From contig OZ025799.1 of the NCBI GenBank assembly GCA_964019425.1, forward strand, positions 1,116,001 to 1,180,000: DNA of 64,000 bases. Reading direction: 5' to 3'. The notes under the pieces are model-generated. The model saw only the letters and a list, made by a program, of their open reading frames with translations, was not told the DNA's origin and searched no databases. How positions within the stretch are numbered: the first letter of the stretch is position 1; every line of letters starts with the position of its first letter. The position numbers and the translations under genes are program-made. Shown here in pieces: positions 1-50,928 of this stretch. This DNA comes from Flectonema sp. DT1601 (lineage: Eukaryota).

Positions 1-675
1 AACTTTTTTTTTTTTTTTTTTTTTAAATGCCTAGTTAAATATTTGTGTCACAGTTCGCATTCGAAGATTCATCAGATTCCCCCTTGTCCAGAAATATTGT
101 TAGAGGGAGGCAGGGAAAAAAGTTAAACAAGGACACCTCAACACACAAATATATAAAAAAAAGAGAGTAATACCGCCTCCTTAACTGGGTGCACAGAAAT
201 GGGAGAAGAAAAACTCTGTTTTTTCCCCCCACTTTTTTTTTTCGTAGGGGAGGGGACGAAAAAATAATGTCCTGAGCCCCTCTATCGTTACTTGTTTGTT
301 TGGATTTTTTATTTTATTTTTTTCTCTTTTATGGTAGTTGCGTAGTCTGTTGTTGGTGAAGCTACAGCTCCCTATTAGAAGTTTCCACCCCGGCATCCCC
401 TCTCCGCAAGTATATCTCTGTGTGAGCTGGGGCATTTAAAAAAAAAAAAAAAAAAAAAGTAAAAAGGAAAGACCGAGGGCATTTTCCTCCCCTCTTGTTT
501 GTTTTTTTTGTGTCCTAATCCCTATATAGTATGTAACCCTGCTTTTTTTTTTATTTTTATTTTTATTTTGTTTGTCTGAATTTTTATGGAAAAAAAAAAA
601 AAGGAGAGATTTAGTTTTGTGTAAACAAATAGAGTATTTTATTAAACAGGTGAGGTTGTGTCAACAACAGACGAA

Positions 676-3600
676 ATGAATACATACACTCAGTTAGTAG
701 CTGTTTTGGTATTTATGCTACAGAGTACCGTTGCAGAAGACAACAGAATGGTCGCCTACGTCGGAAACTGGCAAGCATGTCCGACAACAACACAAACTAA
801 TCAATACACTGAGCTCTTAATTGGTTTCGCTGTCACCTACACCTGGGCCGCTGCGAAGAACAATTGCAACGTCAACTGCGACATCATAACTCCAGTTCCG
901 ATTTGTAATAATGCGGCTAACCCTGGACTTGTATCTCAATGGCAGGCAGCTGGTAAGAAAGTGATTCTCTCATTCGGAGGTGGAGGTATGGGAGGATCGT
1001 GGGATGGTAAGAACGACTGCTGGGAACACTGCTTCGGGAAGGAAGATCACGTCGTCAGTCAACTAAAACAGATTGTCAGAGATCAGAATTTCGATGGAGT
1101 GGATCTCGACTACGAGTATTACTATGAAAATGGTCAAAGAGGGTCTTCCTTCGCAAGAGGTACGGAAGCTCAAAAGTTCATCCGTGACGTGACTACAAAA
1201 CTGAAACAAGAACTTCCAGCAGGTAAACTTGTGACTCACGCACCTATGGATATTGATTTAGTATCTGGGACTGCATACTTTAATATTGTGAAGTCTATCT
1301 CTTCATCAATTGATTTCATAATGCCACAATATTACAATGGTGTTGTTGACTCTGCTGCTAATGGTTTCACTGGTGGAACTACATCAGGGATAGCACACTA
1401 CACAGCTCTTGTGAATGATGCATTCGGAGGAGATGCTACTAAAGTAGTTTATGGATTTTGTATCTCTCAATGTACTCCTGGAACTATTACTGGAGCTGCT
1501 GCTGCTGCTGTAGTTAAGGAAGTGAATACAAACTTTCCTTGTAACGGTGGGGCCTTCTTTTGGGTTGTTAATATGGACACTGGAGCTACTTGGTCAAGTG
1601 CTGTGAATGCTGAGGTTGCAGTCAACAGAGGATGCTCAACAGGAGGCACACAGGCTCCAGCCATTCCAACAACAGCGTCGCCACCAACACCTGTTCCTGT
1701 TCCAAAACCAACAACTACGGAAGATGGCAGAATGGTCGCCTACGTTGGAAACTGGCAGGCATGTCCGACAACAACACAAACTAATCAATACACTGAGCTC
1801 TTAATTGGTTTCGCTGTCACCTACACCTGGGCCGCTGCGAAGAACAATTGCAACGTCAACTGCGACATCATAACTCCAGTTCCGATTTGTAATAATGCGG
1901 CTAACCCTGGACTTGTATCTCAATGGCAGGCAGCTGGTAAGAAAGTGATTCTCTCATTCGGAGGTGGAGGTATGGGAGGATCATGGGATGGTAAGAACGA
2001 CTGCTGGGAACACTGCTTCGGGAAGGAAGATCACGTCGTCAGTCAACTGAAACAGATTGTCAGAGATCAGAATTTCGATGGAGTGGATCTCGACTACGAA
2101 TATTACTACGAAAACGGTCAAAGAGGGTCTTCCTTCGCAAGAGGTACGGAAGCTCAAAAGTTCATCCGTGACGTGACTACAAAACTGAAACAAGAACTTC
2201 CAGCAGGTAAACTTGTGACTCACGCACCTATGGATATTGATTTAGTATCTGGGACTGCATACTTTAATATTGTGAAGTCTATCTCTTCATCAATTGATTT
2301 CATAATGCCACAATATTACAATGGTGTTGTTGACTCTGCTGCTAATGGTTTCACTGGTGGAACTACATCAGGGATAGCACACTACACAGCTCTTGTGAAT
2401 GATGCATTCGGAGGAGATGCTACTAAAGTAGTTTATGGATTTTGTATCTCTCAATGTACTCCTGGAACTATTACTGGAGCTGCTGCTGCTGCTGTAGTTA
2501 AGGAAGTGAATACAAACTTTCCTTGTAACGGTGGAGCCTTCTTTTGGGTTGTTAATATGGACACTGGAGGTACCTGGTCAAGTGCTGTGAATGCTGAGGT
2601 TGAGAAGATTAGAGGATGCTCAACGGGTAGCACGCAGGCTCCAGCCATTCCAACAACAGCGTCGCCACCAACACCTGTTCCTGTTCCAAAACCAACAACT
2701 AAAGAAGATGGCAGAATGGTCGCCTACGTCGGAAACTGGCAGGCATGTCCGACAACAACACAAACTAATCAATACACTGAGCTCTTAATTGGTTTCGCTG
2801 TCACCTACACCTGGGCCGCTGCGAAGAACAATTGCAACGTCAACTGCGACATCATAACTCCAGTCCCGATTTGTAATAATGCGGCTAACCCTGGACTTGT
2901 ATCTCAATGGCAGGCAGCTGGTAAGAAAGTGATTCTCTCATTCGGAGGTGGAGGTATGGGAGGATCATGGGATGGTAAGAACGACTGCTGGGAACACTGC
3001 TTCGGGAAGGAAGATCACGTCGTCAGTCAACTAAAACAGATTGTCAGAGATCAGAATTTCGACGGAGTGGATCTCGACTACGAGTATTACTACGAAAACG
3101 GTCAAAGAGGGTCTTCCTTCGCAAGAGGTACGGAAGCTCAAAAATTCATCCGTGACGTGACTACAAAACTGAAACAAGAACTTCCAGCAGGTAAACTTGT
3201 GACTCACGCACCTATGGATATTGATTTAGTATCTGGGACTGCATACTTTAATATTGTGAAGTCTATCTCTTCATCAATTGATTTCATAATGCCACAATAT
3301 TACAATGGTGTTGTTGACTCTGCTGCTAATGGTTTCACTGGTGGAACTACATCAGGGATAGCACACTACACAGCTCTTGTGAATGATGCATTCGGAGGAG
3401 ATGCTACTAAAGTAGTTTATGGGTTTTGTATCTCTCAATGTACTCCTGGAACTATTACTGGAGCTGCTGCTGCTGCTGTAGTTAAGGAAGTGAATACAAA
3501 CTTTCCTTGTAACGGTGGAGCCTTCTTTTGGGTTGTTAATATGGACACTGGAGGTACCTGGTCAAGTGCTGTGAATGCTGAGGTTGAGAAGATTAGAGGA

Positions 3601-5349
3601 TGTTCTGCATCGACAACAACCGCGCCAACTCCGATCCCAACGCTTGTGCCGACACTCGTACCGACATCAATGCCAACCAGCGTTCCTACTGCTGTGCCAA
3701 CTAACGCACCAACGGCTGTACCTACTGCTGTTCCTACAGCCGTTCCGACTGCAGTTCCGACAATGACACCCACCATGGTGCCAACAGCAGTACCAACGGC
3801 AGTCCCAACCAATGCACCAGGTGCGCCTCCAACAGCTGTTCCAACAGCAATGCCCACGGCAGTTCCAACAGCAATGCCCACAGCAGTTCCGACTGTAGTA
3901 CCAACTGCTGTCCCGACCGCCACTCCGACGGCTGTTCCGACCGCGGTTCCGACTATGGTACCAACGGCAATCCCAACCAATACGCCAGGTGCGCCACCAA
4001 CAGCTGTTCCGACTACGGTACCAACCGCAGTCCCGACCTTAATTCCAACAATGATACCCACCATGATGCCAACAGCAGTACCAACGGCAGTTCCCACGGC
4101 AGTCCCAACAAATACACCAGGTGCGCCTCCAACAGCTGTTCCAACAGCTATGCCTACAACAGTTCCGACTATGGTACCAACGTCTATCCCGACAGCAATC
4201 CCAACAAATACACCGGGTGCGCCTCCAACAGCAGTCCCGACAGCCACTCCGACAGAAGTCCCTACAGCGATGCCGACTGCAGTTCCAACAGCGATCCCAA
4301 CAAATACACCGGGTGCGCCACCAACAGCAGTTCCGACTACGGTACCAACCGCCGTCCCGACCTTAATTCCAACAATGATACCCACCATGATGCCAACAGC
4401 AGTACCAACGGCAGTTCCCACGGCAGTCCCAACTAATACACCAGGTGCGCCTCCAACAGCTGTTCCAACAGCTATGCCTACAGCAGTTCCGACTATGGTA
4501 CCAACGGCTATCCCGACAGCAATCCCAACAAATACACCAGGTGCGCCTCCAACAGCTGTTCCGACGGCAATGCCTACGGCAGTTCCGACTATGATACCAA
4601 CGGCTATCCCGACAGCGATCCCAACAAATACACCTGGTGTACCCCCAACAGCTGTTCCAACAGCTATGCCTACAACAGTTCCGACTATGGTACCAACAGC
4701 TATCCCAACAGCGATCCCAACAAATACGCCTGGTGTACCCCCAACAGCTGTTCCGACTATGATTCCAACGGCTATCCCGACAGCTGTACCGACCAATACG
4801 CCTGGTGTACCCCCAACAGCTGTTCCGACTATGATTCCAACGGCTATCCCGACAGCTGTACCGACCAATACACCTGGTGTACCCCCAACAGCAGTCCCCA
4901 CAGCGATGCCGACCGCAGTAATCCCAACAAATAAACCGGGTGTACCTCCAACAGCAGTTCCTACAGCAATGCCTACAACAGTTCCGACTATGGTACCACC
5001 GACAGCGATCCCAACAAATACACCTGGTGTACCCCCAACAGCTGTTCCGACGACAATGCCTACAGCAAACCCAACAATGGCACCTGGCGTTCCTCCAACA
5101 GAAAACCCAACAGTGGCACCCGACGTTAACGCCAACGGTGCAGGAGGTGCTGATTCGGAAGACGACTCGTCTTTCAACTGGCTTTGGGTAATTATTCCTC
5201 TTCTCATTGTGTTCAGTGCCTGCGGTGCTATCGCCTTCTTCCTGATTCGGAAGAAACAAGATGACCTTTCTCTTACCGACTTCCACGAGCTTATGACAGC
5301 AGAGCCTGACACTGACACTGTGCAGCCTGCGCAGCAGGGAAGGGTTTGA
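676..5349 (+). CDS. Membrane-anchored chitinase-like protein: signal peptide, three near-identical GH18 domains, long Pro/Thr (PTAVP) stalk, C-terminal TM helix
   Basis: GH18 catalytic motif FDGVDLDYE (DxxDxDxE) and KVILSFGG occur three times with a 984-nt period; hydrophobic N-terminus from ATG 676; TM segment [23 protein letters not shown] followed by RKK. Confidence 0.9.
745..3600 (+). repeat. Three tandem ~984-bp intragenic repeats (GH18 domains)
   Basis: AGAATGGTCGCCTAC recurs at ~745, ~1729 and ~2713; units are nearly identical at DNA level. Confidence 0.95.
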
Positions 5350-11733: not shown

Positions 11734-11805
11734 CGCTCCCACTCGGGTTTGAACCGAGGCTGCTGGATTCAAAGTCCAGAGTGCTATCCACTACACCATA
11801 GGAGC
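11734..11805 (-). tRNA. tRNA-Gln (anticodon TTG)
   Basis: Reverse complement GCTCCTATGGTGTAGTGGATAGCACTCTGGACTTTGAATCCAGCAGCCTCGGTTCAAACCCGAGTGGGAGCG folds as a cloverleaf; A/B boxes present; T11 run follows immediately. Confidence 0.95.
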
Positions 11806-12293
11806 CCCCGACCAAATTTCCTTTTTTCTTTTTTTTGGTTACACTCGTCTGTGCTTCCAGACTCTTTGTTTTTGTTCTTTTCACTTCTTTGTTTTGTCTT
11901 TCTTTTATACTTTCTTTTGGTTTAAGTCTGACAAATTGGAAAACACGGGAAACATAGGTAGGCTCCGCCTGAGGACGTAAGAAGAGCGGCAACGGAAAAA
12001 TAAATGGTCACGCGTCCTTGAAATTGGACACACGAAGCTAATTCGGTTACCATTCCTACCATCGATAAGGAAAACAAAGAGTCGAGCATATAACTAGAGC
12101 GGTGGTCAAAGACCACTTGAACAGCCCGAAGGCCTGCCCTCAAGAGAAATTTATAAGGAGAATAGGAGAAGAAGGAGACAGGAGTGTTGGAAGAGACACT
12201 GAGACAACACCGAAGGTGATGTGCAGTTACCCAACCAGGAGATGATTGATAATGATGAAAATACTAAATATTGATAAAACACTTAAATGGCGA

Positions 12294-15200
12294 CTACGTG
12301 TCACCTACACAATTCCAAAGTCTCAGGTTGGATGCTTGTTCCATCCACCTGATCAACATCGCTACCGAAGGAAGCCAGCTGGTGGCAAAGATTGAGCCAA
12401 GACTGGCAGGAATGCCGTTGATGAGGATTAGATCACTTGATCGGTCCCATTTGCCTGTCAATGTAGAAAAGCCAAGGATTTCATATCTGGCTGCATCGAG
12501 TTTCTGTGATGGACAGCCTACGAGTAGGTGGAGTTGGTTGGATGGAGCGCTATGGCAGAATGGACATATGATGGCTTTCCGCCAGTTTTGCATCAGTGGA
12601 TGACACCCCGTTCTAAAATTCGCAATTCTGATTTCATCGCTCCTTTTCATGTCGGGAGGATATTTTATCGCGGCACCTTTGACGGTGTTTTTATAGCAAG
12701 TGTAACCAATTCTGTTCCAAATGTCCTTCGTGATCCCCCTCCTCACTCGGGATTTGTGATAGAAGAAGGATCCTCGGATTGGGATTTGAGGGAGGTATCT
12801 GTTGTGAGCCGATTTCTTAGCAAGCTCATCAACTTCGTCGTGTGCTTCTATCCCCATGTGAGAAGGGATGAATTGAAGATGTACTTTCATACCGCAGTTC
12901 CGTAGGTTCTCGAGGATGCCGAGGGATCTGGTGTTTCTCTGTTTACACCTGCCACCCTTCAACTCGTCCAACAATGATTTTGAGTCGGTATAGATTCTGA
13001 CTGACTTAGTTAGCCCGTCTTTCTGTACCTTCCAGTTTAAGTAGTTTGCCGCATTTTTCAAGGCATGTTGCTCAGTTCTGTAGCTGCAATCCGCACGCAC
13101 TAATCTGGTCGCATGAGCACGTTTCTTTCCGTCTCGTGACCTAGCAATGAGAGCCGCGCCTGACGCATTCAAAGAGTATGAACCGTCACAGTTGATCACC
13201 ATGTCCACCGGAGGAAGTGTCGCGTTGTAGGTAAGGAATTTCTCCCTGTCCACTGCGGGATCAGGGGATTTTGTAAAACCGCAGCTGTTGCTGATTTGAA
13301 CATTGTCCGAAGCAATCCAAGGTTTGATAGAGTCAGGTTGAACGATCCCCACACTTTCTAGTTGACCTTCAGAACGGGGAATGAGGCCACCCCAGAAGCT
13401 TCGAGGCGATGCGAGTGAGTTGGTGTCCGGCACCCAGGTCATGGCTTTGTACCTGAAATAGGCAATTTTAGTCTGCTTTTCGATTTGTCTTTTAAACGGT
13501 AAGATGTCGGCTTCCCAAAGGAGCAACTCCCTCGGAGTACATCTGCTGCATCCTGTTACGAGTCTCGCTATTTTTCTCATCTCGAAGTCGATAGCATCCG
13601 TTTTATGCTGGTTGAGCAACCAACCAAAGCTGTCCAGTGCATAGGAAATCCTCGCTGTCACGTACAAGTTTTTAACCATCTTTAGGGTCTTGTAGTCCAA
13701 TTCATATGGCTGGAGGCACTGCAGAAGGGAGATCCCTTTCTTCAGTTCGTCGTGTATTTTCTCTAACTGTTTATCAAACCTGAGCCTGTTATCAATGTAA
13801 ACACCCAGATATTTCACTGAGTCCGTGATCGGCAGTAGGAAGGCAATTTTAATTTTCGCTTTGACATTCATCTCGTCGTGGATGTTCAACATCAGTAAAT
13901 CTTCTAATTCTTGTTGAGTCCTGATGGGTTTCCCCTCTACTTCGAGGATCGTTTCACCACTCAGTAAAGTGGGCCTTGTCGTCGTCGTGATGATCACGCT
14001 GTCTAGATCAAAATAGTCAATATCTAACGAACGTACTTCCAGTGATTTTGAGAATAAGAGTTCGCGGTCGCTAGTATCAGTCAGGGTTACTTCTTTCGAT
14101 TGAATATCCATTTTCAGAGCGCAAGTCTTGGAGACTGAAAGTGCCATGTCATTATCACGGCACCACTTGTCAACGATGTCAAGTATTCGTTGAGCGTTTG
14201 AGATTGCTTCGTCCATGGTCGAGCCAAATACTGCACAAGCGGTGTCGTCTGCATACAGTGCGGTCAAAGTCGTTTCCTTCTCTTGTGAGAGAATCTTACA
14301 CAGATCGTCAACATATATTAAATAGAGTAGTGGGCCTAAGATTGATCCTTGAGGCACTCCTTTTGACAGCGTACGAAACTTACTGAAATGTCCATTTGCA
14401 TCAACTCTGACCTTCCTATTGGTTAGAAAGTCCGTTATCCATCGAACGATGAAGGTTGGGATGCCCATTCTTTGTAGTTTTGAAAGTAAAATTCGATGGT
14501 TAATCCTATCGAAGGCAGCTGTGAAATCGAATGACAAGAAGACTGACCTCCTCCCCTTCGTGTGGTTGTTTACCATGGCGTCCACCAGAATTGTGATTTG
14601 TTCGCAGGTATTTCTGCCCCGTCTGAAGCCAGCTTGAATCGGACTGAGTGCTGAGTTTTCGGTAAGCCAATGCATGAGCCTGTCGTACACCAACCTCTCA
14701 GCCAGTTTGCCAACAACCGAAGTGAGTGTGATTGGTCTGTAGCTTTTAATATCGTTCCGCGGTTTGCCCGACTTGAACATCGGTTTGATTAACCCCTGTT
14801 TCCAAAGATATGGAACATTGGAGGATCTCCACGAAGAATTGATCACCTTTAATAAACAGTCAACTGCCTTCTGAGATAAGTTCTTAAGCATTTCGTTGTG
14901 AATACCGTCAGGGCCTGCTGCTTTGCGAGGCTTCAGGTTTTTAATTGCTGCTGATATCTCGGTATCTGTGAAGTCACAACAGATGTCCAATTCCAAGTCT
15001 TCTTTCTCCAATGAAGGGGCTTCGAGTTTAGCAGCATCCCCATCGGCCACAAAGAGGTCCAGAAATGCTGCAGGTAAATCGTTCTCAGATATATTTGATA
15101 CGCTGATGTCCTTACCAGCGTCCTGTTGGAGTTCTTTAATCTTCTTGAAGGCGAAGTTAAAGTTGTTCCCCTTCTTCAGTTGGTCTTTCAGGTGACTGCC

Positions 15201-16274
15201 TTTTGATTTTAGAGATTCCGGTGAAGAGATCTTCCACTTACGTCGGCGCTTGCCCTTAAATAAGATTCTCCTCCGCACGTTCCTCGCAGCTACTTCATGT
15301 ATTATGTTATTTAATAATCCAACATTACCAGTGGCATCATCCGAGAACTTAGCCCTATCAATTCTTCTATCAAGTTGCTGTCTGAAAGCACTCCAGTTTG
15401 TAGATTTGAAATCCCAGACAGTTCGTTTCCTTGCTCCAACTGTTGCTTGAGAGAGGTGAGCCATTGTGTCGAAGATAGCGAGTAGAGGTCGATGATCCGA
15501 GTTATGTTTACTGTCTTCATTTATGATTGAAAATTCTTCTAATACAATTGATCCTTTGAAGAATATAACGTCAGGTGAGGTACCACCACCAGGAATGTCG
15601 TGTTTGGGCCGAGTTATTTGACCAGGTCTGTTTGCTACGAGAACGTCATTGCGATCCGCCCAATTAAATAATTCTTTACCAGATTTGGTTGTCCTGGTAG
15701 ACCAGACGAGGTTGTGTGCGTTGAAGTCGCCCGCAATAATAGACTTCGTTGTGATCGGAAGATCATCTTCTCTAATGATACACCCAGGGGGAGCGTAAAC
15801 GTTAATAACATTGACACCACCAACATTCAACATCATAGCTTCGATACCGCTTGTTCTCGAAAACAATTCTTCATCACTGATTCCTTGTGAGAAGCATCTC
15901 TTTGCCATTATTATAATGCCACCACCTTTTGTATTTCTGTCCTTCCTATATGTATAATAGCCAGGGTGCGAAATGTGTTCCTTCGACCAGGTTTCCTGTA
16001 AGCACAGTACATCCGGCGAGTAGTGAGAAAGGAGTCTTTGAATATAAGACCCCTTCTGACTTATCGATCTACAGTTCCAGCTCAACACTGAGAGTAACGA
16101 ATTTTCAGGTCCAGGGTTGCGTTCAACGTCGCCTGCCAGCAGTAATAAACTTCGGGTCAGTTCTTTTTCAGTTTGAGAGATAGTCGGTGCTGTTACAGTA
16201 GTCGGCTTCACCAGAACTTTACTATGATGTGCGTCATTTTTAGAATTTGAAGTTGACGGTGTTCGTTTGTCAAG
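12294..16274 (-). CDS. Copy A ORF2: 2A peptide, apurinic endonuclease, reverse transcriptase, RNase H, CCHC; no initiator AUG, in frame with ORF1
   Basis: LLLAGDVERNPGP; SWNCRS, LCLQETW, GDFNAH, SDHRPL (APE); KAAGPDG, YRPITLTS, QAGFR, GVPQGSILGP, YADD, KYLGV (RT); INCDGS, YTDSKS, FIPSH (RNase H); CPFC...HLLVGC. Confidence 0.93.
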   Translation of the reverse strand, partial: LDKRTPSTSNSKNDAHHSKVLVKPTTVTAPTISQTEKELTRSLLLLAGDVERNPGPENSLLSVLSWNCRSISQKGSYIQRLLSHYSPDVLCLQETWSKEHISHPGYYTYRKDRNTKGGGIIIMAKRCFSQGISDEELFSRTSGIEAMMLNVGGVNVINVYAPPGCIIREDDLPITTKSIIAGDFNAHNLVWSTRTTKSGKELFNWADRNDVLVANRPGQITRPKHDIPGGGTSPDVIFFKGSIVLEEFSIINEDSKHNSDHRPLLAIFDTMAHLSQATVGARKRTVWDFKSTNWSAFRQQLDRRIDRAKFSDDATGNVGLLNNIIHEVAARNVRRRILFKGKRRRKWKISSPESLKSKGSHLKDQLKKGNNFNFAFKKIKELQQDAGKDISVSNISENDLPAAFLDLFVADGDAAKLEAPSLEKEDLELDICCDFTDTEISAAIKNLKPRKAAGPDGIHNEMLKNLSQKAVDCLLKVINSSWRSSNVPYLWKQGLIKPMFKSGKPRNDIKSYRPITLTSVVGKLAERLVYDRLMHWLTENSALSPIQAGFRRGRNTCEQITILVDAMVNNHTKGRRSVFLSFDFTAAFDRINHRILLSKLQRMGIPTFIVRWITDFLTNRKVRVDANGHFSKFRTLSKGVPQGSILGPLLYLIYVDDLCKILSQEKETTLTALYADDTACAVFGSTMDEAISNAQRILDIVDKWCRDNDMALSVSKTCALKMDIQSKEVTLTDTSDRELLFSKSLEVRSLDIDYFDLDSVIITTTTRPTLLSGETILEVEGKPIRTQQELEDLLMLNIHDEMNVKAKIKIAFLLPITDSVKYLGVYIDNRLRFDKQLEKIHDELKKGISLLQCLQPYELDYKTLKMVKNLYVTARISYALDSFGWLLNQHKTDAIDFEMRKIARLVTGCSRCTPRELLLWEADILPFKRQIEKQTKIAYFRYKAMTWVPDTNSLASPRSFWGGLIPRSEGQLESVGIVQPDSIKPWIASDNVQISNSCGFTKSPDPAVDREKFLTYNATLPPVDMVINCDGSYSLNASGAALIARSRDGKKRAHATRLVRADCSYRTEQHALKNAANYLNWKVQKDGLTKSVRIYTDSKSLLDELKGGRCKQRNTRSLGILENLRNCGMKVHLQFIPSHMGIEAHDEVDELAKKSAHNRYLPQIPIRGSFFYHKSRVRRGITKDIWNRIGYTCYKNTVKGAAIKYPPDMKRSDEIRIANFRTGCHPLMQNWRKAIICPFCHSAPSNQLHLLVGCPSQKLDAARYEILGFSTLTGKWDRSSDLILINGIPASLGSIFATSWLPSVAMLIRWMEQASNLRLWNCVGDT

Positions 16275-17699
16275 TCAGTTTGAATTATCCATTTCCACAT
16301 CAGTCGTTTCAGTAGTATCGGTTGGTTCTTCAGCACAGTGTCGCTTCAGATCACCAGATATAACTGGACCCTTGCCCGGGTTGAAGGTCGGCCCCAATTT
16401 GACCGGCTTTTCTCTTTTAGTTTCCATGTTGATTACAAGGTACGCATCTTTACCCATGTCGACGAAGCTTGGTGATGGAACCGATTCAGAGATTGCAATT
16501 AACGTTTTGTTGCCTCCCTTATGAAAACTAGCCACAATTGTGTGACTCCACTTGTATGCGTGCAACAGGTGATCGCTGATCTGTTGCGTCGTGAACTTCT
16601 TAATAGCCAGTGATTTAATTATAAAACGCTGACCAGTCGGCAGTGCGGGTTTCAGAGAATCCCCGAGTGATTCTCTCACTTTTTGAGTAAACCCGGGTTG
16701 AACTTTCAGCCCAAAGCACTCTCGGAACTTCGTGATGTAGAAGCTACCTTTGATTGCTGAAAGAACTGAAAGTTTGCCCAGCACCGCTTTGAAGCCCAAG
16801 TCCTTAACGAACTGAACTGTGTTCCAAGAGTCTTGGCCATTAGACCAAGATGGGTTTCTGATGAATAGATCTCTCTTCTCACTGGAGGTGTCGCTGTTGT
16901 TGTATTCCAGAATTTCAGAAATTCTGAAGTTTGGCACACGGATCGCCATAGATGTGTGCATATCGCATTTTTTAAATCCGAAGGGCGATGTCTTCAGCTC
17001 CCACTTTTTAATTAATTCTTTCACCTTAGTGGTGAGAGTGCTCTCTGCTGATTTACTCCAGTCTTGTACGAATAGAACTGGGTCTGGCTGTGGTGGCTCG
17101 ATGGCGTCTTCTCTTGCGGCAGTGAAATCTTTGCCACAAATCGGGGTGACAAATACCCTACGAATGACGCAGGTTCCGCACTTCTTTACGACTGGAAGTG
17201 CGACTGGGACTGTTGTTTTAAACAGTTTAGACTTTGAGATGGCAGTCCAGTCGCCCTTCGTTCGTGTTTGCTTCAGTGCTTCATAATCAGCCTTTGAGCT
17301 GATGAGCACGAGTCCGTCCGCGTTGTTTTTGGAGGCATCGATTGCTTCTGAGAATTTAAGCGTAGGTGTTGCTTTAGCCCACGCTGCGTGAATGTACCAC
17401 TCTGGCAGAGTGGGTTTCTTGTTGTTGGTAGTTGGTGTCGGGCCTCCATCATTTCCATCCCTCACCGTGCTCGCCGCTTCCTGTCGTTGTCCCCCGGACT
17501 CCTTCCCCTTCCTCTCTTGCTCTGTCGTCTTTCTCTTTGACGACTCTCCTTGTTTCTCTCCGGAGTCCTCCGTCAGCTGCTCCAGCACTCTCATCGTGAG
17601 AGTCAAAACCCTCCTTCTCTTTTCTTCTCCTGCTAGTCCTTTCTCCACTTCTTGTACTAGCCGCATCACATCCAAAAGCAGCTCCTTACAACTGCTCAT
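16275..17699 (-). CDS. Copy A ORF1 protein (no recognised domain)
   Basis: Long open frame from ATG 17699; clearly homologous to copy B ORF1 (PEWxIHxAWA, TVPVALPVxKK, VLFxQDW, RNPSWSNG, VASFHKGG, LGPTxNPG). Confidence 0.85.
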   Translation of the reverse strand: MSSCKELLLDVMRLVQEVEKGLAGEEKRRRVLTLTMRVLEQLTEDSGEKQGESSKRKTTEQERKGKESGGQRQEAASTVRDGNDGGPTPTTNNKKPTLPEWYIHAAWAKATPTLKFSEAIDASKNNADGLVLISSKADYEALKQTRTKGDWTAISKSKLFKTTVPVALPVVKKCGTCVIRRVFVTPICGKDFTAAREDAIEPPQPDPVLFVQDWSKSAESTLTTKVKELIKKWELKTSPFGFKKCDMHTSMAIRVPNFRISEILEYNNSDTSSEKRDLFIRNPSWSNGQDSWNTVQFVKDLGFKAVLGKLSVLSAIKGSFYITKFRECFGLKVQPGFTQKVRESLGDSLKPALPTGQRFIIKSLAIKKFTTQQISDHLLHAYKWSHTIVASFHKGGNKTLIAISESVPSPSFVDMGKDAYLVINMETKREKPVKLGPTFNPGKGPVISGDLKRHCAEEPTDTTETTDVEMDNSN

Positions 17700-17763: not shown

Positions 17764-17779
17764 CAATAAAGTACAGAAA
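17764..17779 (-). other. Spliced-leader 3'-end remnant at the 5' end of copy A
   Basis: Minus strand TTTCTGTACTTTATTG matches the diplonemid SL exon 3' end as I recall it (kinetoplastids: TTTCTGTACTATATTG); preceded by five extra TCTGTACT units. Confidence 0.8.
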
Positions 17780-18682
17780 GTACAGAAGTACAGAAGTACA
17801 GAAGTACAGAAGTACAGATTTCCTTTTTTCTTTCTGTCGTTCGAACGTAGATTTTCTTTCTTCTTCTCCTTCATTTTCCCACGGTACCCCAATCTTCCTG
17901 TCGCTTCATGGTTCCACGTGATCCTTTCTCCAGCTCCTTGGCTCCGATGATTTTGGTTCCTTTTTTCTATCCGATTCGCCAGCCACTATGTGCGCTTTAC
18001 TTCAAGGGTAGCATCATCATGTTGCTTATTGCCCCGAACCGCTACCACCCGCGTAGGTTTGCATTTCCAGGGGTCCCTCCGATAGGTCTCCCCCGTGATC
18101 CATTCTAGTGCCAGTTCTAATGCACGTAGTACGGGATCCTTTTCCTCTCGTGTGGCCTCATGCCACTTTTTTCCACTGCGCCTCCTACTCTCGCGCTCTC
18201 TCGTCCGTGCACAGCTTCTTCACCTTCCCAGCGTAGCACCTGCAGTGAGGTTTCACTCCATGTGCTGTACGTTCCACATGGGACCGCGTACCGCCGATCC
18301 CTGCGTGCCCTTTAACGTCTTGTCCGCTGGCTTGTACTCCGGGTCAGTGCCTGAGGAAAGCCTCCGCCCCCGCCTCCTCTCCATTATTGAAATCCTGGTA
18401 TACATCGCACGAGAGTCCCCTTTTTTCGGGGTGGCATAGAGCTTGAACTTGCTCTTCACTCGCGTCGCCAGTTTACTCCTTGTTGTGTCCGCCCGTATTG
18501 TGCTACGAGCTGCGTTCTTCTTCTCACACCGACCAAGCGACCTCCATGTTGCCTGTGGAACTTCACTCTGTACCGGTGACTTAACGATACCGTCGTAGAG
18601 TTTTTTACTACGTTTATACCGTTTAAAGGATAAATTCCTATGTTTGTGACCCTTTCCTATTTTAGTTTCACAGAGTAATATA

Positions 18683-37684: not shown

Positions 37685-38864
37685 GGAGGTTATAGAAAGT
37701 CTTAAGCTACTCTAACGCCTTCAGTTTGGTCGATCCATTCTTATCACACAAACAGTTAACAATCTAAAGGAGTCATGAGGGATCACTACTACCGTAGTGA
37801 ACTGTTCCTATGTTGGAATTGATTAGCAGTTCTGACAGAAGTCTTTACTTAAGGTCTGCCACCTCATGCTCTGCAATTGCTCCACCTTCTGGAGATCAAG
37901 AACCCTTTAAAGAGCAGGATCTTTTCCTCTGTCGAAAGACTTTGGGGGATTCGCTGTTTGTCTTCGATTGCTTTGATTCTGTTCCTCTTCGTCGGGATTT
38001 TTTCATGCAAACGAACGTAGTTTCAAAAGAGAGATGTTCTGATTCGTCTGAACTGACGAGTTTTTCTTTTTTTCACTTCTTTTTTCCTCTCTTCCTTGCC
38101 CTCCTTTTGTCATCAAAATCTTTACGTGAAATCATTTTTAGAGGTTGAAATTTTTTTTATCCCACTTGAACCTTTTTCTTTCGTTCTTTCAGATTACAAA
38201 AATGAAAATACTCTGATTACAAGTGCAGTTGGAGAAAACATTACTTTGTGGATTTGTTCAGTAGCGTGAACAGAGGTAGAGAAGGTTTCCGTGTAGCAGT
38301 TGGACATAGGGCAAGTGTAATTTTCACCTCAAATAGACATCATGTACTCTTAACTTTTAATTTACTTTTCAGGATGTAATGTAGGCCTTTGAAACAACAT
38401 CAGCAACAGCATGCAAGCAATTCTGATGCACTGACCCAAGTGATAAAGATTTCCTAAAAAATCGTGCCTGCAAGAGTCCATTTCTTAAAAGGTCTTGTAG
38501 ATCCTTCTCCGCATATTCTTTGCAAAGAAAAAACAGCTGCCACTTTTTTTCTGTGGCGTTCCTGGCGAAACCTACACTCTGCCGTATTACATTATACCCC
38601 TGGTTTTGGTTTCCCAGGGCTCACGATTAATTCGTAATTGAATAACTCGATTTCGTACTGCACTGAATGACTATAACACGGAAAAAGAGACATGTATGCA
38701 GATAAGTTAGAAACATTGATTATAATGTAGAGCAAGTACGGAGTGTTATTTTAGTCACTGTGTCATGAGTTTTTAATATTATTATTGAGTTCTGAGAGAT
38801 TTATATTTGTATGAACCTAATCAAACAAAAAGCCAATTGACATAGCTGTTGAAAAGAAAAAAAG

Positions 38865-38936
38865 CAACCGTGGCAGGACTCGAACCTGCAACCGCCTGAT
38901 CCGTAGTCAGGCGCTCTTCCATTGAGCCACACGGTC
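38865..38936 (-). tRNA. tRNA-Arg (anticodon ACG)
   Basis: Reverse complement GACCGTGTGGCTCAATGGAAGAGCGCCTGACTACGGATCAGGCGGTTGCAGGTTCGAGTCCTGCCACGGTTG folds as a cloverleaf; T7 run downstream. Confidence 0.95.
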
Positions 38937-39451
38937 AATAAATGGAAAAAAGCTTTTCTTTTTTTTTTTTTTTTTTGGTTACACTCGTCTGTGCTACCAA
39001 ACTCTTTGTTTTTGTTCTTTTCACTTCTATGTTTTGTCTTTCTTTTATACTTTCTTTTTGACTTAAGTCTGACAAATTGGAAAACACGGGAAACATAGGT
39101 AGGCTCCGCCTGAGGACGTAAGAAGAGCGGCAACGGAAAAAATAAATGGTCACGCGTCCTTGAAATTGGACACACGAAGCTAATTCGGTTACCATTCCTA
39201 CCATCGATAAGGAAAACAAAGAGTCGAGCATATAACTAGAGCGGTGGTCAAAGACCACTTGAACAGCCCGAAGGCCTGCCCTCAAGAGAAATTTATAAGG
39301 AGAATAGGAGAAGAAGGAGACAGGAGTGTTGGATGAGACACTGCGACAACACCGAAGGTGATGTGCAGTTACCCAACCAGGAGATGATTGATAATGATGA
39401 AAATACTAAAAATAATAACAAATTGATATTGGCGACTACATGTCACCTACT

Positions 39452-42400
39452 TTATTTCCAAAGTCTAAGGTTAGATGTCTGTTCCATCCACCTTATGATC
39501 AACGCGAGTGATGGAAGCCACGCCAAAGTGAAGAGAGCTTCAAGGTTAGGAATTTCGTTGGCAATAATAAGTTCCCGGTCGCGATCCCACTTGCCGGTCA
39601 GTGTTGAGAAGCCCAGGATTTTGAACCTGGCCGAATCGAGTTTGGGAGATTGACATCCCTGCAGCAGGTGAACCTGTGAGGACGGTTCGCCACAAAATGG
39701 GCAGTCGATCGTCTTGCGCCAGTTCTGAATTAGCGGGTGACATCCTGTCCGGAAGTTCGCTATCCGTATCTCGTCGGCTCTTTCCATCCCAGGAGGGTAT
39801 TTAACGGAACGGCCTCCGATGAGGTGCTTGTAGCAAGTGTAACCACTCACGTTAAGAAGATCTTTTTTGATGCAGCGCTTAACATGAGATGATCGCGAGA
39901 AGTACGTGCCTTTGACTAGCACAGGACGGATGTTCTTGTTGTGTGCTGCTTCCTTTGCAAGCGCATCAACTTCATCGTGAAATCCGATTCCAATGTGCGA
40001 GGGGATGAATTGCAGATGCACTTTCATTTCACACATGCGCAGGTATTCCAGTATCTTCAAGGACTCAGTGTTCTTCTGTCTGCACCTTCCACCCAGCAGT
40101 TCATCCAGAAGGGATTTTGAGTCCGTGAATATCCTCACAGATTTCATTGAAGTATCTTTGCTAAACACTGTTCTCAGATGTCTAGCCGCGTTCTTCAGAG
40201 CATGTTGTTCAGCCCTGTAGCTGCAGTCAGCTTGATAAAGCCTAGACGCGTAAGCAGATCGAAGGCCGCTACGTGACTTGGCAATATGAGCCGCACCGGC
40301 CGCGCCGGAAGCAGAGTAGGAGCCATCGCAGTTGATTACCATGTCGACAGGAGGTAACGTTCCAATGTACGACATGAATTTTTCTTTGTCCACCGCAGGG
40401 TTCGCGGACTTCGGAAATCCGCAGCCGTTGCTAATCCTAAGGTTTGTCGGAGATACCCAGGGTTCCATCGAGTCAGGCTGCACAAGGCACTGGCTTTCTC
40501 GCTGACTATCAGTGCCAGGGATTAGGCCAGCCCAGTAGCTTTGTGTTGAGGCGAGTCTGTTTGTATTAGGTATCCAAGTCATGGCTTTATACCTGTAGTA
40601 CGCAATTTTTGTCTGCTTTTCAATCTGACGTTTAAAAGGATACATGTCAGACTCCCACAACAGTAACTCTCTTGGCGTACACTTGCTGCATCCAGTAACC
40701 AGTCTGGCGACCTTCCTCAGTTCGAAGTCGATGCTGTCAACGCTGCTGCTTATCAGCCAACCAAAACTGTCAAGCGCATATGAGATTCTTGCGGTTACAT
40801 AAAGGTTCTTAACCATGTTAAGAGTCTTGTAGTCCAGTTCGTACGGCTGGAGGCACTGCAGAAGTGATATCCCCCTCTTTAATTCTTCGTGAATCTTGCC
40901 TACTTGTTTGTGGAAGGTGAGCCTGTCGTCGATGTGAACTCCGAGGTATTTTACTGAGTCGACTATCGGTAACAGAAAGGCAGTTTTGAATATTGCTCTC
41001 ACAACCATAATGCTGTCCTCACGAACGACGTATTGCAGCATCAAGTTGTCGAGTTCTTCTTGTGTCTTGATTGGGATTCCTCCAATTTCAAGAATCGTTT
41101 CGCCACTTTGAAGCATGGGTCTGGGTGATTTGAGATTGATATGATTCTCGATGTCACCATAGTCAAGTTTAAGCATGCGTTCCTCAACAGATCTAGAGAA
41201 AAGCAGTTCGCGATTACACGTATCGTTTAGTACTATGCCCTTCGAGCGAACATTCATCTTAAGCGCACAGGTTTTGGAGACCGATAAGGCCATGTCGTTT
41301 TCAAAACACCATTGATCCACTTTGTCGAGTACTAACTGAGCATTCGAAAGAGCTTCTTCCATGTTTGATCCTGACACCACACATGCTGTGTCATCCGCAT
41401 ACAGAGCAGACGTCGTTGTTTCCTTCTCCAGTTCCAAAATCTTGCAGAGGTCATCAACGTAGATAAGATAAAGAAGAGGACCCAGGATCGATCCCTGGGG
41501 AACCCCCTTAGCCAGAGTACGGAATTCGCTAAAATACCCATTCGCTTCAACTCTAACCTTCCTGTTTGTAAGAAAGTCTGTGATCCATCTGATAATAACA
41601 TTCGGAACACCCATCTTTACTAATTTTAATAAAAGTATCTTATGGTTGATCCTGTCAAACGCAGCAGTAAAGTCGAATGACAAGAACACTGATCTCTTTT
41701 CTTCCATGTGGCTCCTTACGATAGCATCTACTAGAACGGTGATCTGCTCGCAGGTATTTCTCCCCTTTCTGAATCCAGCCTGTAGTGGACTGAGCGACGA
41801 ATGTTTTGTGAGCCAGTGCATGAGTCGGTCATACACGAGCCTCTCCGCAAGTTTCCCAACAACCGAGGTGAGCGTTATTGGTCTGAAACTCTTTAGTTCA
41901 TTACGAGGTTTCCCTGCCTTGAACATGGGCTTGATTAGTCCCTGTTTCCATTGGTACGGTACTTTTGAAGTCTTCCAAGAAGTGTTAATAATTCTCAAGA
42001 GGTATTCCACTGTTGCCGGAGTGAAGTTTTTGATCATCTCATTGTGAACTCCATCAGGTCCTGCAGCCTTGCGGGTCTTCAGGTTCTTAATCGCAGCTTT
42101 AATTTCAGCCATTGTGAAATCACAGCAAATATCTATTTCATTATCACCTTCTGAGAGTGCGGGGGCCTCTAGCGATAATATTTCCGATTTCGAGACAAAC
42201 ATGTCCAAGAATGCTGATGGGAGATCGCAGTCAGAGATGTTGTTGACACTGATATCTTTACCAGCATCTTGCTGCAGTTCTTTGATCTTCTTAAACGCAA
42301 AGGCAAAGTTGTTACCCTTGTCAAGTTGATCACGTAGGTGGACACCCTTCGATTTGGTAGAATCAGGGGTTGACGTCTTCCACTTTCGTCTCCGTTTCCC

Positions 42401-43363
42401 TTTGAAAAGGAGACGTCGACGAATGAATTTAGCCGCCACTTCATGCAGTATGTTGTTAAAGAGCTTGGCATTCGCAGTTGCATCATCGGAGAGTCTTGAT
42501 TTTCTAATTCTCTTTTCGAGCATGGTCCCAAAGCAGTTCCAGTCCGTAGACTTGAAGTCCCATACAACGCGTTTCTTCGAACCTATCGTGGCCCGTGCAA
42601 GTTGGCACATGGGATCCAGTACGGTGTAGAGAGGTCGATGATCTGACCCATGTTTATTATCTTCTTCAATTGCACTAAATTCTTCAAGAACCATCGAGTT
42701 TGAAAAGAATACTACATCTGGCGAGGTACCACCCCCCGGGACGTCAGGAAAAGGCCTTGTGATTGACCCCATCTTGTTAGCAACCAGTAGATCATTTTGG
42801 GCTGCCCATGCATGTAGAGTTGAACCTGCTCTCGTCGATTTAAGTGACCACACCGGATGATGGGCATTAAAGTCACCCGCGACGATTGCTTTCGTTGAGA
42901 CTGGAAGATCTGACTCTCTGATCATGCATCCCGGGGGAGCATAAACATTGATGATGTCAATCTTTCCACCTATGTTGACCTTCACGACCTCGACATCATT
43001 TAAGTGTGGCGGAAGCTCCATGTTCAAACGCTGCTGAGTGTGGCATTTTTTCACCATAGAAATAACCCCTCCACCTCGTGTTGCCCTATCATTCCGATAG
43101 GTGAAATAGTCCGTGTGCGAAATTACATCATTCGTCCAAGTCTCCTGTAGGCACAGTACGTCAGGCGCATAGGCATTTAGCAGCTTGTGAATATAAGCGC
43201 CTTTGTTCCCCATCGATCGACAGTTCCAGCTCAGTAGAGATATGAGAGAGTTGTCAGGGCCAGGGTTGCGTTCGACGTCGCCTGCCTTTAGCAGCAGTTC
43301 ACGAGCCGTATCCTTTTCCACAAGTGAGTTGGTCGGACTGAGTTCATCCTCATCGTCATCTAG
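39452..43363 (-). CDS. Copy B ORF2: 2A peptide, APE, RT, RNase H, CCHC; no initiator AUG, in frame with ORF1
   Basis: LLLKAGDVERNPGP; SWNCRS, GDFNAH, SDHRPL; GVPQGSILGP, YADD, KYLGV; INCDGS, FTDSKS; CPFC...HLLQGC. Confidence 0.93.
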   Translation of the reverse strand, partial: LDDDEDELSPTNSLVEKDTARELLLKAGDVERNPGPDNSLISLLSWNCRSMGNKGAYIHKLLNAYAPDVLCLQETWTNDVISHTDYFTYRNDRATRGGGVISMVKKCHTQQRLNMELPPHLNDVEVVKVNIGGKIDIINVYAPPGCMIRESDLPVSTKAIVAGDFNAHHPVWSLKSTRAGSTLHAWAAQNDLLVANKMGSITRPFPDVPGGGTSPDVVFFSNSMVLEEFSAIEEDNKHGSDHRPLYTVLDPMCQLARATIGSKKRVVWDFKSTDWNCFGTMLEKRIRKSRLSDDATANAKLFNNILHEVAAKFIRRRLLFKGKRRRKWKTSTPDSTKSKGVHLRDQLDKGNNFAFAFKKIKELQQDAGKDISVNNISDCDLPSAFLDMFVSKSEILSLEAPALSEGDNEIDICCDFTMAEIKAAIKNLKTRKAAGPDGVHNEMIKNFTPATVEYLLRIINTSWKTSKVPYQWKQGLIKPMFKAGKPRNELKSFRPITLTSVVGKLAERLVYDRLMHWLTKHSSLSPLQAGFRKGRNTCEQITVLVDAIVRSHMEEKRSVFLSFDFTAAFDRINHKILLLKLVKMGVPNVIIRWITDFLTNRKVRVEANGYFSEFRTLAKGVPQGSILGPLLYLIYVDDLCKILELEKETTTSALYADDTACVVSGSNMEEALSNAQLVLDKVDQWCFENDMALSVSKTCALKMNVRSKGIVLNDTCNRELLFSRSVEERMLKLDYGDIENHINLKSPRPMLQSGETILEIGGIPIKTQEELDNLMLQYVVREDSIMVVRAIFKTAFLLPIVDSVKYLGVHIDDRLTFHKQVGKIHEELKRGISLLQCLQPYELDYKTLNMVKNLYVTARISYALDSFGWLISSSVDSIDFELRKVARLVTGCSKCTPRELLLWESDMYPFKRQIEKQTKIAYYRYKAMTWIPNTNRLASTQSYWAGLIPGTDSQRESQCLVQPDSMEPWVSPTNLRISNGCGFPKSANPAVDKEKFMSYIGTLPPVDMVINCDGSYSASGAAGAAHIAKSRSGLRSAYASRLYQADCSYRAEQHALKNAARHLRTVFSKDTSMKSVRIFTDSKSLLDELLGGRCRQKNTESLKILEYLRMCEMKVHLQFIPSHIGIGFHDEVDALAKEAAHNKNIRPVLVKGTYFSRSSHVKRCIKKDLLNVSGYTCYKHLIGGRSVKYPPGMERADEIRIANFRTGCHPLIQNWRKTIDCPFCGEPSSQVHLLQGCQSPKLDSARFKILGFSTLTGKWDRDRELIIANEIPNLEALFTLAWLPSLALIIRWMEQTSNLRLWK

Positions 43364-45022
43364 TCAGTTGAGATCAAAGTCCGAATCGTTACTTTCCATT
43401 TCTACGTCACGGTTTTTATCACTATCCTGCTTAGCAGCAGATTCGGTGGGCGGTGTTGTTGTTTGTGCTGTTGCTGGTGCTGGCGTTGGTGTTGGTGCTG
43501 ATGGTGCTGGCGCTGGTGTTGGTGCTGATGTCGGCTGCTGAGTTGGCTGTTGTGGTTGAGGAGTTGTTTTTTGTCTCTTCAGGGTTCCCGTTAGTTTTTG
43601 AGCCGCGTCGCCTGGGTTGTAGGTTGGGCCTAGCGGTTTTCTGTCAGTTCGTTTAACTTCTTTGTTTATTACAAGGTATTCATTAGTACCTATGCTTACG
43701 AAGTTGGGCGGTTGAGATTTCGCAATTGCAACAATTGTAGTACTCCCTCCTTTATGGAAAGAAGCAACAACTGTGTGTTCCCAGTTGTGTGAGGACTTCA
43801 AGAAGTCGCTGATCTGCGCTGTCGAGTACTTACGAATCGCCATCGAATTTATAACAAACCTGTCGCCCGAGGGCAGTGCAGGCTTGATTGCCGCGTTGAG
43901 CTTAATGCTGACCCTGATATTACAGTCAGGGTGGACTCGGAGTCCAAAACAGCTTTTAAACCTGCACATGTAGAATTTTCCTTTGAATTCATCAAGTGCA
44001 GAAGTCTTGGACTTCGCTGCCAGGAAGCCAAGGTCGTTTTTGAATTGCAACGTTGGCCAAACGTCACTTCCGTTCGACCAACTCGGGTTTCTGAAAAAGA
44101 CATTCTTGGGTTTGTCAGTTTCGGGTTCGCTGTTGTTGTATTCCAGAACCTCGTGTACTTGGTTTCTGGGGACTCTGAAAGCCATCGAGGTGTGGGACTC
44201 GTTCTTTCTGTAGCTAAAGGGGTCCGCCTTTATCTTCAATTTCTTTAGAATATCGGTCGTTTTGACGGTCAATTCTTTCTCAGCTGATTTTCCCCAGTCT
44301 TGGATGAATAGAACTGGGTTGGGAGTTGGAATCTGGTGGCTAGTTGCTGCTTTAGAAAAGTCGTCACCAAATACGTGCGTGTAAAATACGCGCCTGATCT
44401 CGCAGACGCCACCCTTTTTTATCACCGGTAATGCTACTGGAACGGTGCTCTTTGTGAGCGGGATTTTGCTGATAGCAGCCCAACGGCCGCTCTTCTTTGT
44501 TTGGCGGAGTGCTTCTAAGTCTAGCTTCGAACGAACTAAAACAAGACCAGAGGTAAGGTTGTTTGTAGCATTAGCTGCTACGTCGTAACTGATGGTGGCC
44601 ACAGTGCCTGCCCACGCACCGTGAATGTGCCACTCCGGGTAGCTTGCTTTTGCTTTTCCCTTCGTGGTTTGATTGTCCTTCATTGCTGTCGGTATCGGCA
44701 ATGAGAACGGCTTCGTACTCGTCTGTTGATTAGAAGCTGTAGATGCTCCTGTAGTTGGTTGGTTGACACCTGTGGTTGAGGGTGTCGTCGCTTCTGCTGC
44801 CGTCGTCGCGGTCGCTTCCGTCCCACCACTCCCATCGAGTGTGTCCGGTGTCCTCCTCTTCATCTCCGGGTTCCCACCTTCTGACCCAGCTACGAATTGA
44901 ACGATCTCCAGTAGGAGATTTGCCACCCTTCTTTCCTTCTCTTGCTCCGGGATCCCGTCTTCTCCCACTATCTTCAGGAGGTTTATTGCCTCCGATACCA
45001 ACCTCCTCAGGTTGTCTCTCAT
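43364..45022 (-). CDS. Copy B ORF1 protein
   Basis: Open frame from ATG 45022; homologous to copy A ORF1, with longer Thr/Pro-rich linkers. Confidence 0.85.
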   Translation of the reverse strand: MRDNLRRLVSEAINLLKIVGEDGIPEQEKERRVANLLLEIVQFVAGSEGGNPEMKRRTPDTLDGSGGTEATATTAAEATTPSTTGVNQPTTGASTASNQQTSTKPFSLPIPTAMKDNQTTKGKAKASYPEWHIHGAWAGTVATISYDVAANATNNLTSGLVLVRSKLDLEALRQTKKSGRWAAISKIPLTKSTVPVALPVIKKGGVCEIRRVFYTHVFGDDFSKAATSHQIPTPNPVLFIQDWGKSAEKELTVKTTDILKKLKIKADPFSYRKNESHTSMAFRVPRNQVHEVLEYNNSEPETDKPKNVFFRNPSWSNGSDVWPTLQFKNDLGFLAAKSKTSALDEFKGKFYMCRFKSCFGLRVHPDCNIRVSIKLNAAIKPALPSGDRFVINSMAIRKYSTAQISDFLKSSHNWEHTVVASFHKGGSTTIVAIAKSQPPNFVSIGTNEYLVINKEVKRTDRKPLGPTYNPGDAAQKLTGTLKRQKTTPQPQQPTQQPTSAPTPAPAPSAPTPTPAPATAQTTTPPTESAAKQDSDKNRDVEMESNDSDFDLN

Positions 45023-45080: not shown

Positions 45081-45096
45081 CAATAAAGTACAGAAA
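45081..45096 (-). other. Spliced-leader 3'-end remnant at the 5' end of copy B
   Basis: Minus strand TTTCTGTACTTTATTG, followed by ATTTC as in copy A. Confidence 0.8.
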
Positions 45097-45181
45097 GCAA
45101 GATGGATGCGACAAAAAGCTTTTCATTTTGTCGCATCCATCTTGTATATCTCTCATTTAGCTTTTTTTAAAAAAAAATAAA

Positions 45182-50000: not shown

Positions 50001-50928
50001 AGACGAGGCGAAACGGAGTGAAGCAGACTTACCTGCTCAAGACACGAGAGTTTACACGGATGGGTCGATAAGACACAAGTCTAAGACCTACATGACGAAT
50101 GCAGCTGCTGCTGTGGTTATAGTAGACAAAGGCAAGACGTGTCTACTTGGATACAAAATACCGGTGGCGGGTTCCTCCTACAGGACTGAACAGATCGCTG
50201 TAAAATTGGCGATGGAGAATCTTGTTCAAGCAGCGAAGGAGGAACGAGAATGTCCGACAGCAACGACGCACCTGTTGACTGATTCGATGTCAGTCATGCA
50301 GGCATTGGAACAAGGACCATACAAACAAAGGTCCCCAATGAATAAAGACATCTGGAAGTTAGCTATGAAGCTAGAGAGGAAGGGTGTACAAATTAACGTA
50401 CAGTATGTGCCAGCGCACAGAAATGTACGATACAATGAAGTAGCAGACCAGATTGCGAAGTATGCAGCAGGCCTGAAGGATGATCCACCTTATAAGGATG
50501 TAATTATTAAACAACTACCCGCTCAACTTGATATGGGAACGATGATGACCTTCCACAAGCGGAGAAAACGGGAGAACTGGTTAGGGCCAGGAGAGGTAAG
50601 GCACCCTCCATACATTGATGAGCTCACCAGACCGGAAGAAGTGATCATGTCACGCTTTAGAGTGGGACACTGCAGATCCTTGAAACTCAAGGGACAAAAT
50701 GAGAAATGCATTTTCTGTAAAGATGCAAGGGCAACACCACATCATGTGGCCTTATTATGTGAACACTGGTGCGTGGAATTCTTAAGAGACAAGTACATCG
50801 ATCCTATGATAAACGAAGAAGGAGAAGAACCATGTTCTCTAGAAGACTGTTACTTACCGAATAACCAACGAAGGATGTTAAACTTTGTCACTGCCTTGGA
50901 CGAACTAGCAGTACTAACAGGAAGGTAA
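47008..50928 (+). CDS. Copy C ORF2 (APE-RT-RNase H-CCHC) interrupted by one in-frame TAG at 49855-49857
   Basis: LLQETWL, GDINGH, SDHQPL; KAPGPD, GVPQGSVLGP, FADD, RYLGV; after the TAG the same frame stays open into VYTDGS, TDSMS, YVPAH, NEVAD and CIFC...H...C. Confidence 0.85.

Follow-up and report, generated by a model that had tools for sequence, protein, structure and literature searches.

A PDZ-derived domain predicted within the reverse transcriptase of diplonemid LINEs inserted at tRNA genes

The choice of insertion site is known for few APE-type LINEs, and the one known tether to tRNA genes is an ORF1 protein (ORF1p). The available parts of PMC5006619 present the dictyostelid elements TRE5-A, NLTR-A and NLTR-B as LINEs with an APE endonuclease and a reverse transcriptase (RT) lying at fixed distances upstream of tRNA genes (2–6 bp for NLTR-A and 39–64 bp for NLTR-B, both of which carry RNase H). 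In excerpts of PMC10499050 and PMC12180492, the 6a insertion between RT motifs 6 and 7 of R2Bm reads upstream target DNA and is required for nicking. In euglenozoan hosts, the trypanosome Ingi/L1Tc elements combine, according to the accessible text of PMC3708506 and PMC12278014, an APE-RT-RNase H architecture with a 2A-like motif before APE (as defined in PMC3708506), poly(A) and target-site duplications (TSDs).

The analysis reported here concerns a 64-kb stretch of DNA from Flectonema sp. DT1601 (the window) and points to a real, conserved PDZ-derived domain within a LINE RT, probably common to two sister families situated at tRNA genes. A full-text literature search, outside which lay subscription papers, Repbase and bioRxiv supplements, returned no description of a LINE RT with a PDZ domain, nor of diplonemid LINEs targeted to tRNA genes; the portions of the Diplonema papillatum genome paper at hand, like rows from seven of its supplementary files, give LINE ORFs without PDZ-insert or tRNA detail.

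Three LINEs and two tRNA genes in the window

The window contains three LINEs with an APE endonuclease and an RT, A and B on the minus strand and C on the plus strand, and the features found (an ORF2 encoding APE and RT, an A-tail, TSDs) are those of APE-type non-LTR retrotransposons. ORF2 of element A (12294–16274, minus) comprises a 2A-like motif, APE, an RT (YADD at 14244–14255) bearing the insert considered below, a thumb, an RNase H-like region and a Cys/His tail; RNase H was recognised by Pfam only in the relatives P0004, P0005 and P0008 and in element C, and the region in A is here termed RNase H-like. The 2A-like motif, GDVERNPGP, lies directly N-terminal of APE in A (16107–16133, minus) and B (43256–43282, minus) and is absent from C, in which RNase H is present. 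ORF1 of A (16275–17699, minus), for which a Pfam search gave no match, is in the frame of ORF2; in B the equivalent ORF2 (39452–43363, minus) is preceded by an ORF1 (43364–45022, minus) 43% identical to that of A. Element C consists of an ORF1 (45182–47011, plus) unrelated to those of A and B (blastp E 0.08 or worse) and an APE-RT-RNase H ORF2 (47008–50928, plus) with one in-frame stop at 49855–49857, of which unbroken 1306-aa relatives exist. ORF1 measures about 470–610 aa in all three elements. The ORF2 products of A and B are 67% identical and, as judged from sequence, the two are different subfamilies and not copies of one element. The nearest named relatives are transcripts of Flectonema neradi and Rhynchopus euleeides, which, with the spliced-leader sequences described next, make a diplonemid host likely.

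At the 5′ end of A (17764–17817, minus), tandem partial repeats lead into a 16-mer from the 3′ end of the euglenozoan spliced leader, and the spliced-leader 3′ 16-mer is likewise found at the 5′ end of B (45081–45096, minus); euglenozoan spliced leaders are tabulated in the part of PMC3795323 consulted. On account of these relics, the RNA inserted as A and B was likely trans-spliced.

A single TGA separates the same-frame ORF1 and ORF2 of A (16275–16277, minus) and B (43364–43366, minus), in an equal context that we take to be leaky, and is followed by the 2A-like motif; ORF2 of A has no methionine ahead of the APE motif, its first being at aa 123. Together, these sequence features suggest that ORF2 is expressed in A and B by stop readthrough plus ribosome skipping. 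The RNA structure at the ORF1 stop was nothing special (z 0.73). In C, the stop of ORF1 and the start codon of ORF2 overlap (47008–47011), an expression strategy unlike that of A and B. The 3′ UTRs of A (with its A-tail, 11832–12293, minus) and B (38959–39451) match at 447 of 462 bases, yet synonymous sites in ORF2 are saturated, so that swapping of 3′ ends between the two subfamilies is likely; the fold of the A/B 3′ UTR showed no covariation across the 2 rows available.

Both tRNA genes of the window have a same-orientation element upstream. The target of A is tRNA-Gln(TTG) (11734–11805, minus), and its 16-bp TSD (5′ copy 17818–17833, 3′ copy 11816–11831, minus; last base ambiguous) ends 10 bp upstream of the tRNA in its mature form; that of B is tRNA-Arg(ACG) (38864–38936, minus), with a 12-bp TSD (5′ copy 45113–45124, 3′ copy 38947–38958, minus) that likewise ends 10 bp upstream of this tRNA in its mature form. 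The chance of two such insertions was roughly estimated at 4e-7 to 8e-6, and position −10 approximates the transcription start in the section of PMC5911963 seen. Because the ends coincide at two tRNA genes whose flanks have only an A-run in common, insertion of A and B would appear to be position-specific rather than sequence-specific. Element C stands head-to-head with B; before B arrived its neighbour was the same tRNA-Arg, about 66 bp upstream of which it would have lain in reversed orientation, and only an A-run, a weak candidate, could serve as its TSD. The tRNA association thus comprises two insertions (A and B) plus C, which shares the tRNA of B, all within the 64-kb window. In the small shares of three runs represented by Logan contigs, none bridged an element end to a new flank.

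At the 5′ junction of B (45097–45145), about 16 bp of target DNA is duplicated in inverted form, giving a palindrome between B and C. Behind the A-tail of C lies a mosaic (51304–51907) of 99 bp from the end of an ORF2 of the P0003 family, a fragment of LSU rRNA and, reversed, 47 bp of A/B 3′ UTR; the portion of the D. papillatum genome paper available records about 3600 scattered 28S pieces. A short remnant at 60745–60879 (minus) resembles the RNase H region of the P0003 family, and at 646–5346 and 53151–59058 the window holds a host gene encoding a PT repeat and three GH18 domains that are nearly identical, and two tandem BspA-type LRR genes.

Position and distribution of the RT insert

The initial annotation held that about 105 aa separate SKT from KYLGV in A and B, a figure borne out by the 103 aa (A) and 106 aa (B) measured between KT and [KR]YLG; the corresponding distance in C is 127 aa. 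The SKT-to-YLGV spans lie at 13800–14132 in A (minus), 40937–41278 in B (minus) and 49018–49422 in C (plus). The interval in which a PDZ-like insertion had been placed, 13830–14095 (minus), is in frame with ORF2 of A, and both peptides then quoted were recovered, at 13893–13967 (A) and 41039–41113 (B). The putatively PDZ-derived insert of A occupies 13830–14066 (minus; ORF2 R737–P815), a 79-aa folded core including hairpin stems just before RT motif 7 (KYLGV); that of B (40967–41212, minus) is 52% identical to it, and that of C (49069–49392, plus) is a basic 108-aa segment of predicted PDZ-like topology. The insert separates motifs 6 and 7 of the RT and is located at the tip of a hairpin ahead of KYLGV, where it takes the place of the turn of the short hairpin seen before motif 7 in a profile consensus of mostly insert-free LINEs.

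From the catalytic DD to YLG the distance is 148 aa in A, 151 aa in B and 174 aa in C, as against a median of 76.5 aa and a true maximum of 97 aa in 212 LINE RTs from outside the family, none of which has the insert; in this comparison, the second measurement, 228 of 241 rows were measurable. Mis-measures produced by the regular expression (P0052, P0090, P0007, P0008) were removed on inspection, among them the apparent long-insert outsider P0090, the loop of which is normal. All nine close A/B clusters (P0001–P0009; five from ENA, four from Flectonema) carry the insert, with a DD-YLG distance of 135–151 aa that is exactly 139 aa in six of them. In the C clusters the distance is 173–175 aa in 6/6 measurable cases, the seventh, P0353, ending within the insert. 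In these cluster measurements, 94 and 91 of 120 matches were measured. Insert-bearing clusters come from two hosts and include F. neradi transcripts, while P0011 (Rhynchopus) and P0012, which of the sequences outside the family come nearest to it, are without the insert. A metagenome scan yielded 69 loci with best segments 26–42% identical (37% at most where most of the RT was covered) and no family member. In the family member P0156 the C-terminal 170 aa of ORF2 run into other sequence; presumably they resemble a DDE transposase.

Resemblance to PDZ domains

Alignment of ten inserts revealed conserved F, G-E-x-I and L-P positions, and the A/B insert carries the PDZ-type signature L-x-x-G-E-x-I-x-x-V-x-G-x-x-V followed by helix αB and strand βF. 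Taken singly the inserts gave little: that of A matched Pfam PDZ_6 weakly (E 0.06–0.17) and at 12.9 bits fell short of the 27-bit gathering score, that of B had no PDZ match in Pfam, and across the ten inserts only four produced Pfam PDZ matches at E ≤ 10 (best E 7e-4). An Atlas search with the A insert placed PDZ clusters at 0.86–0.89, which serves as a lead only. The family profile, by contrast, resembled PDZ domains above chance in searches of both the PDB and sequence representatives. Against the PDB it drew 70 sequences at E ≤ 10, the top 19 rows (E ≤ 0.04) being RseP-, HtrA/DegP-, LIMK2- and KIAA1095-type proteins; PDZ is stated in the titles of part of these top rows, and the HtrA-type matches we take to be PDZ proteins. 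The best single stretch reached E 2.6e-4, values of 1e-8 being the sum of two stretches, and the homology spans profile positions ~21–77 only.

Against 1.84 billion representatives, 226 matches were obtained at E ≤ 0.001. Among the 150 matches listed, six were family members and 144 were not; none of the latter matched a LINE profile, and all 18 of them that were scanned carry Pfam PDZ families, with tandem repeats accounting for most of their significance (outside the family no single domain scored above 29 bits). Since the matches include the multi-PDZ protein DIPPA_01748 of D. papillatum, host multi-PDZ proteins are, by sequence, a possible source of the insert. An hhalign comparison of A/B with a PDZ profile (97.5%) was disregarded as circular, the profile having been chosen by means of the A/B profile itself.

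The AlphaFold2 model of the A insert, made without templates, had a pLDDT of 82.1. In a wide VIA-align search with the A/B model, PDZ appeared in 47 of 50 titles (Z up to 7.4), and in a second look the top rows were PDZ domains at Z 7.7 with an rmsd of 2.3 Å over 73 residues; these Z values are middling, and values below 8 can reflect merely a common arrangement. Foldseek gave PDZ in 44 of the 46 rows listed, none at E ≤ 0.001. With the Z values alone middling, the case for A/B rests on sequence searches and structure searches leading to the same result, and on that footing a PDZ fold is predicted with high confidence.

Convergence has nevertheless to be weighed, given that single-domain scores are modest (the 29 bits above), that the Pfam cut-off was missed and that C is devoid of a sequence signal: the insert might be a tolerated passenger, or a β-hairpin extension that arrived at a PDZ-like arrangement. 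This is improbable, for the insert is kept in every family member, in two hosts and at near-constant length (139 aa in 6/9; 173–175 aa in 6/6), and the sequence and structure searches for A/B both point to PDZ. Moreover, pN between the A and B inserts (0.29) is far below pS (0.80, saturated) and comparable to the pN of 0.27 in APE; by these substitution measures the insert is under constraint at the protein level.

The domain so predicted is a trimmed one. Its homology covers the βD-βE-αB-βF half of a PDZ domain; a helix follows βA in the models of both A and C, and in the aligned ranges of the A model no strand of at least three residues occurs between that helix and βD, the place of βB included. 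The carboxylate-binding loop of GLGF type, defined in the part of PMC7138185 available as X-Phi-G-Phi after βA, was found by pattern in 0/17 inserts, a sole loose L-G-L in P0008 being situated in a predicted helix. Canonical binding is described in the excerpts of PMC7138185 and PMC7094393 as requiring this loop together with the βB/αB groove, internal-motif, dimer and lipid binding also being known. The missing loop and the short βA-to-βD segment make ordinary peptide binding doubtful, and the model indicates that the A/B insert probably has no canonical groove for C-terminal peptides. That the insert might, as a canonical PDZ domain, bind a protein of the host or the element by its C-terminal peptide agrees with a predicted fold of the eukaryotic, βA-first type but, with neither loop nor βB strand in evidence, is very unlikely. 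The captured PDZ-fold module of the initial annotation therefore stands as regards profile homology and predicted fold, although not as a complete domain, and the insert is likely a PDZ-derived module with a putative docking surface, not to be filed as a canonical PDZ.

The insert of C had been described as dissimilar, and in sequence it is: hhalign of the A/B insert against it gave a probability of 1.6%, its comparison with the profile picked as PDZ gave 5.9%, and searches of Pfam, PDB profiles and Atlas returned no PDZ match. Its predicted fold, however, is also PDZ-like, if weakly. The model (pLDDT 87.6, pTM 0.79) shares with that of A the βA-helix start and the αB-βF end, and VIA-align found PDZ in 43 of 50 titles, with Z no higher than 5.1; of the seven remaining titles, we take six to be PDZ-bearing proteins and one not. 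Foldseek returned no PDZ for this model and nothing at E ≤ 0.001. On the model, a PDZ fold in C is favoured, with moderate confidence.

The C family is, in addition, sister to A/B. A tree on RT plus thumb without the insert columns (36 rows chosen from 241) united the two with support of 98/92, and one on APE (33 rows) with 83/89; a first FastTree had left A/B plus C unresolved (support 0), with P0012 inside. AU tests rejected A/B+P0011 (p 0.025) and C+P0012 (p 0.034) and kept A/B+P0012 (p 0.076), P0011 and P0012 both being long branches. The sister relationship favours one old capture, and a single origin of the insert for A/B and C is considered likely.

Possible function and comparison with known systems

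It is tentatively proposed, partly by analogy, that the insert is a PDZ-derived docking surface that would help to place the element at tRNA genes. An ancestor of the diplonemid LINE clade would have captured the domain, likely once. During target-primed reverse transcription the RT motif 6–7 segment would face upstream target DNA as the R2 6a loop does, and the insert-bearing segment would, whichever way the element is oriented, look onto DNA some 30–60 bp upstream of the tRNA, near the footprint of TFIIIB. A non-canonical surface of the module would make contact with the Pol III initiation machinery (TFIIIB-type factors), and that contact would set the position of the APE nick. The full scheme, of a host PDZ grafted into the RT palm as a groove-less tether to the Pol III machinery, with one sister family tuned to the same-strand tRNA start and the other to a reversed position at about −66, is rather doubtful as a whole.

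The proposal draws on the fact that A/B and C have the insert in common while their ORF1s show no relationship. It is opposed by the nature of the insert, which with a mean family identity of 30% (RT 60%, APE 44%) is among the least conserved parts of ORF2 and ranges in net charge from −5 to +4 in the A/B family and from −1 to +10 in the C family, low conservation and variable charge being unlike a surface for a conserved partner. The known LINE tether to tRNA genes, that of TRE5-A, is moreover ORF1p and not the RT, and by our inference the 6a parallel is imperfect, the R2 loop lying about 30 residues before YLG and the insert about 10.

The low conservation, the variable charge and the tether of TRE5-A lend weight to a role unconnected with targeting, in which the PDZ-derived domain would help to assemble the RNP, support the stability or processivity of the RT, or dock a general host factor, leaving targeting to ORF1p or APE. 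The ORF1p of TRE5-A binds TBP, Brf1 and Bdp1 in the available text of PMC5911963, and though both bear the insert, A/B and C are unlike in how they are oriented and how far from the tRNA they lie. Against targeting by ORF1, the insert is the acquired feature that A/B and C share; their ORF1s being unrelated, tethering by ORF1 would need two separate origins should C be targeted as well. Because TRE5-A uses ORF1p, and because the surface and charge of the insert vary widely, the Pol III tether is ranked first with the non-targeting role, itself a tentative reading, a close second.

Alternatively, the module might read or clamp upstream target DNA directly, as R2 6a does, with no protein partner. 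It occupies the same inter-motif segment as 6a and is basic in the C family (+4 to +10 in six complete inserts), but the inserts of A and B are acidic (−5 and −3) and their targets have no common sequence beyond an A-run; direct DNA reading is unlikely.

Were the Pol III tether correct, it would represent an RT-borne, swappable protein module for targeting target-primed insertion, and a domain between RT motifs 6 and 7 is in any case a discrete part for deletion or swapping. Even without a targeting role, a hairpin that tolerates a domain of 80–110 aa is relevant to LINE- and R2-based gene insertion. Targeting of tRNA genes in Euglenozoa, not met with in the literature search, is suggested by these elements.

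In relation to PDZ domains at large (PF17820 PDZ_6, PF13180, PF00595; DIPPA_01748), the insert is alike in the L-x-x-G-E-x-I-x-x-V-x-G-x-x-V signature, αB, βF and predicted overall fold, and differs in its missing carboxylate-binding loop, the helix after βA, the shrinkage of βB/βC/αA in A/B and its seat in a polymerase palm. The Ingi order of APE-RT-RNase H with a 2A-like motif before APE recurs in A and B, whereas C is without 2A; Ingi, according to the accessible part of PMC3708506, has no ORF1 and starts with Pr77, while A, B and C have a long ORF1 and A and B bear spliced-leader relics at their 5′ ends. The Ingi texts at hand mention neither an RT insert nor tRNA targeting. By comparison with TRE5 and NLTR, which belong to another eukaryotic supergroup and in whose available descriptions a PDZ insert is not mentioned, A and B are oriented as the tRNA, C is reversed as is TRE5 (at about 50 bp upstream of the tRNA gene in the text seen), and the tether of TRE5-A is ORF1p. 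With R2 6a (R2Bm, PDB 8gh6; PMC10499050, in the part available) the insert has in common that it is specific to a lineage and lies between motifs 6 and 7 of the RT in a site-specific LINE, here putatively so; however, 6a is a short loop that reads DNA and belongs to an element of RLE type, and the present insert is a domain of 80–110 aa, nearer to motif 7, in elements of APE type.
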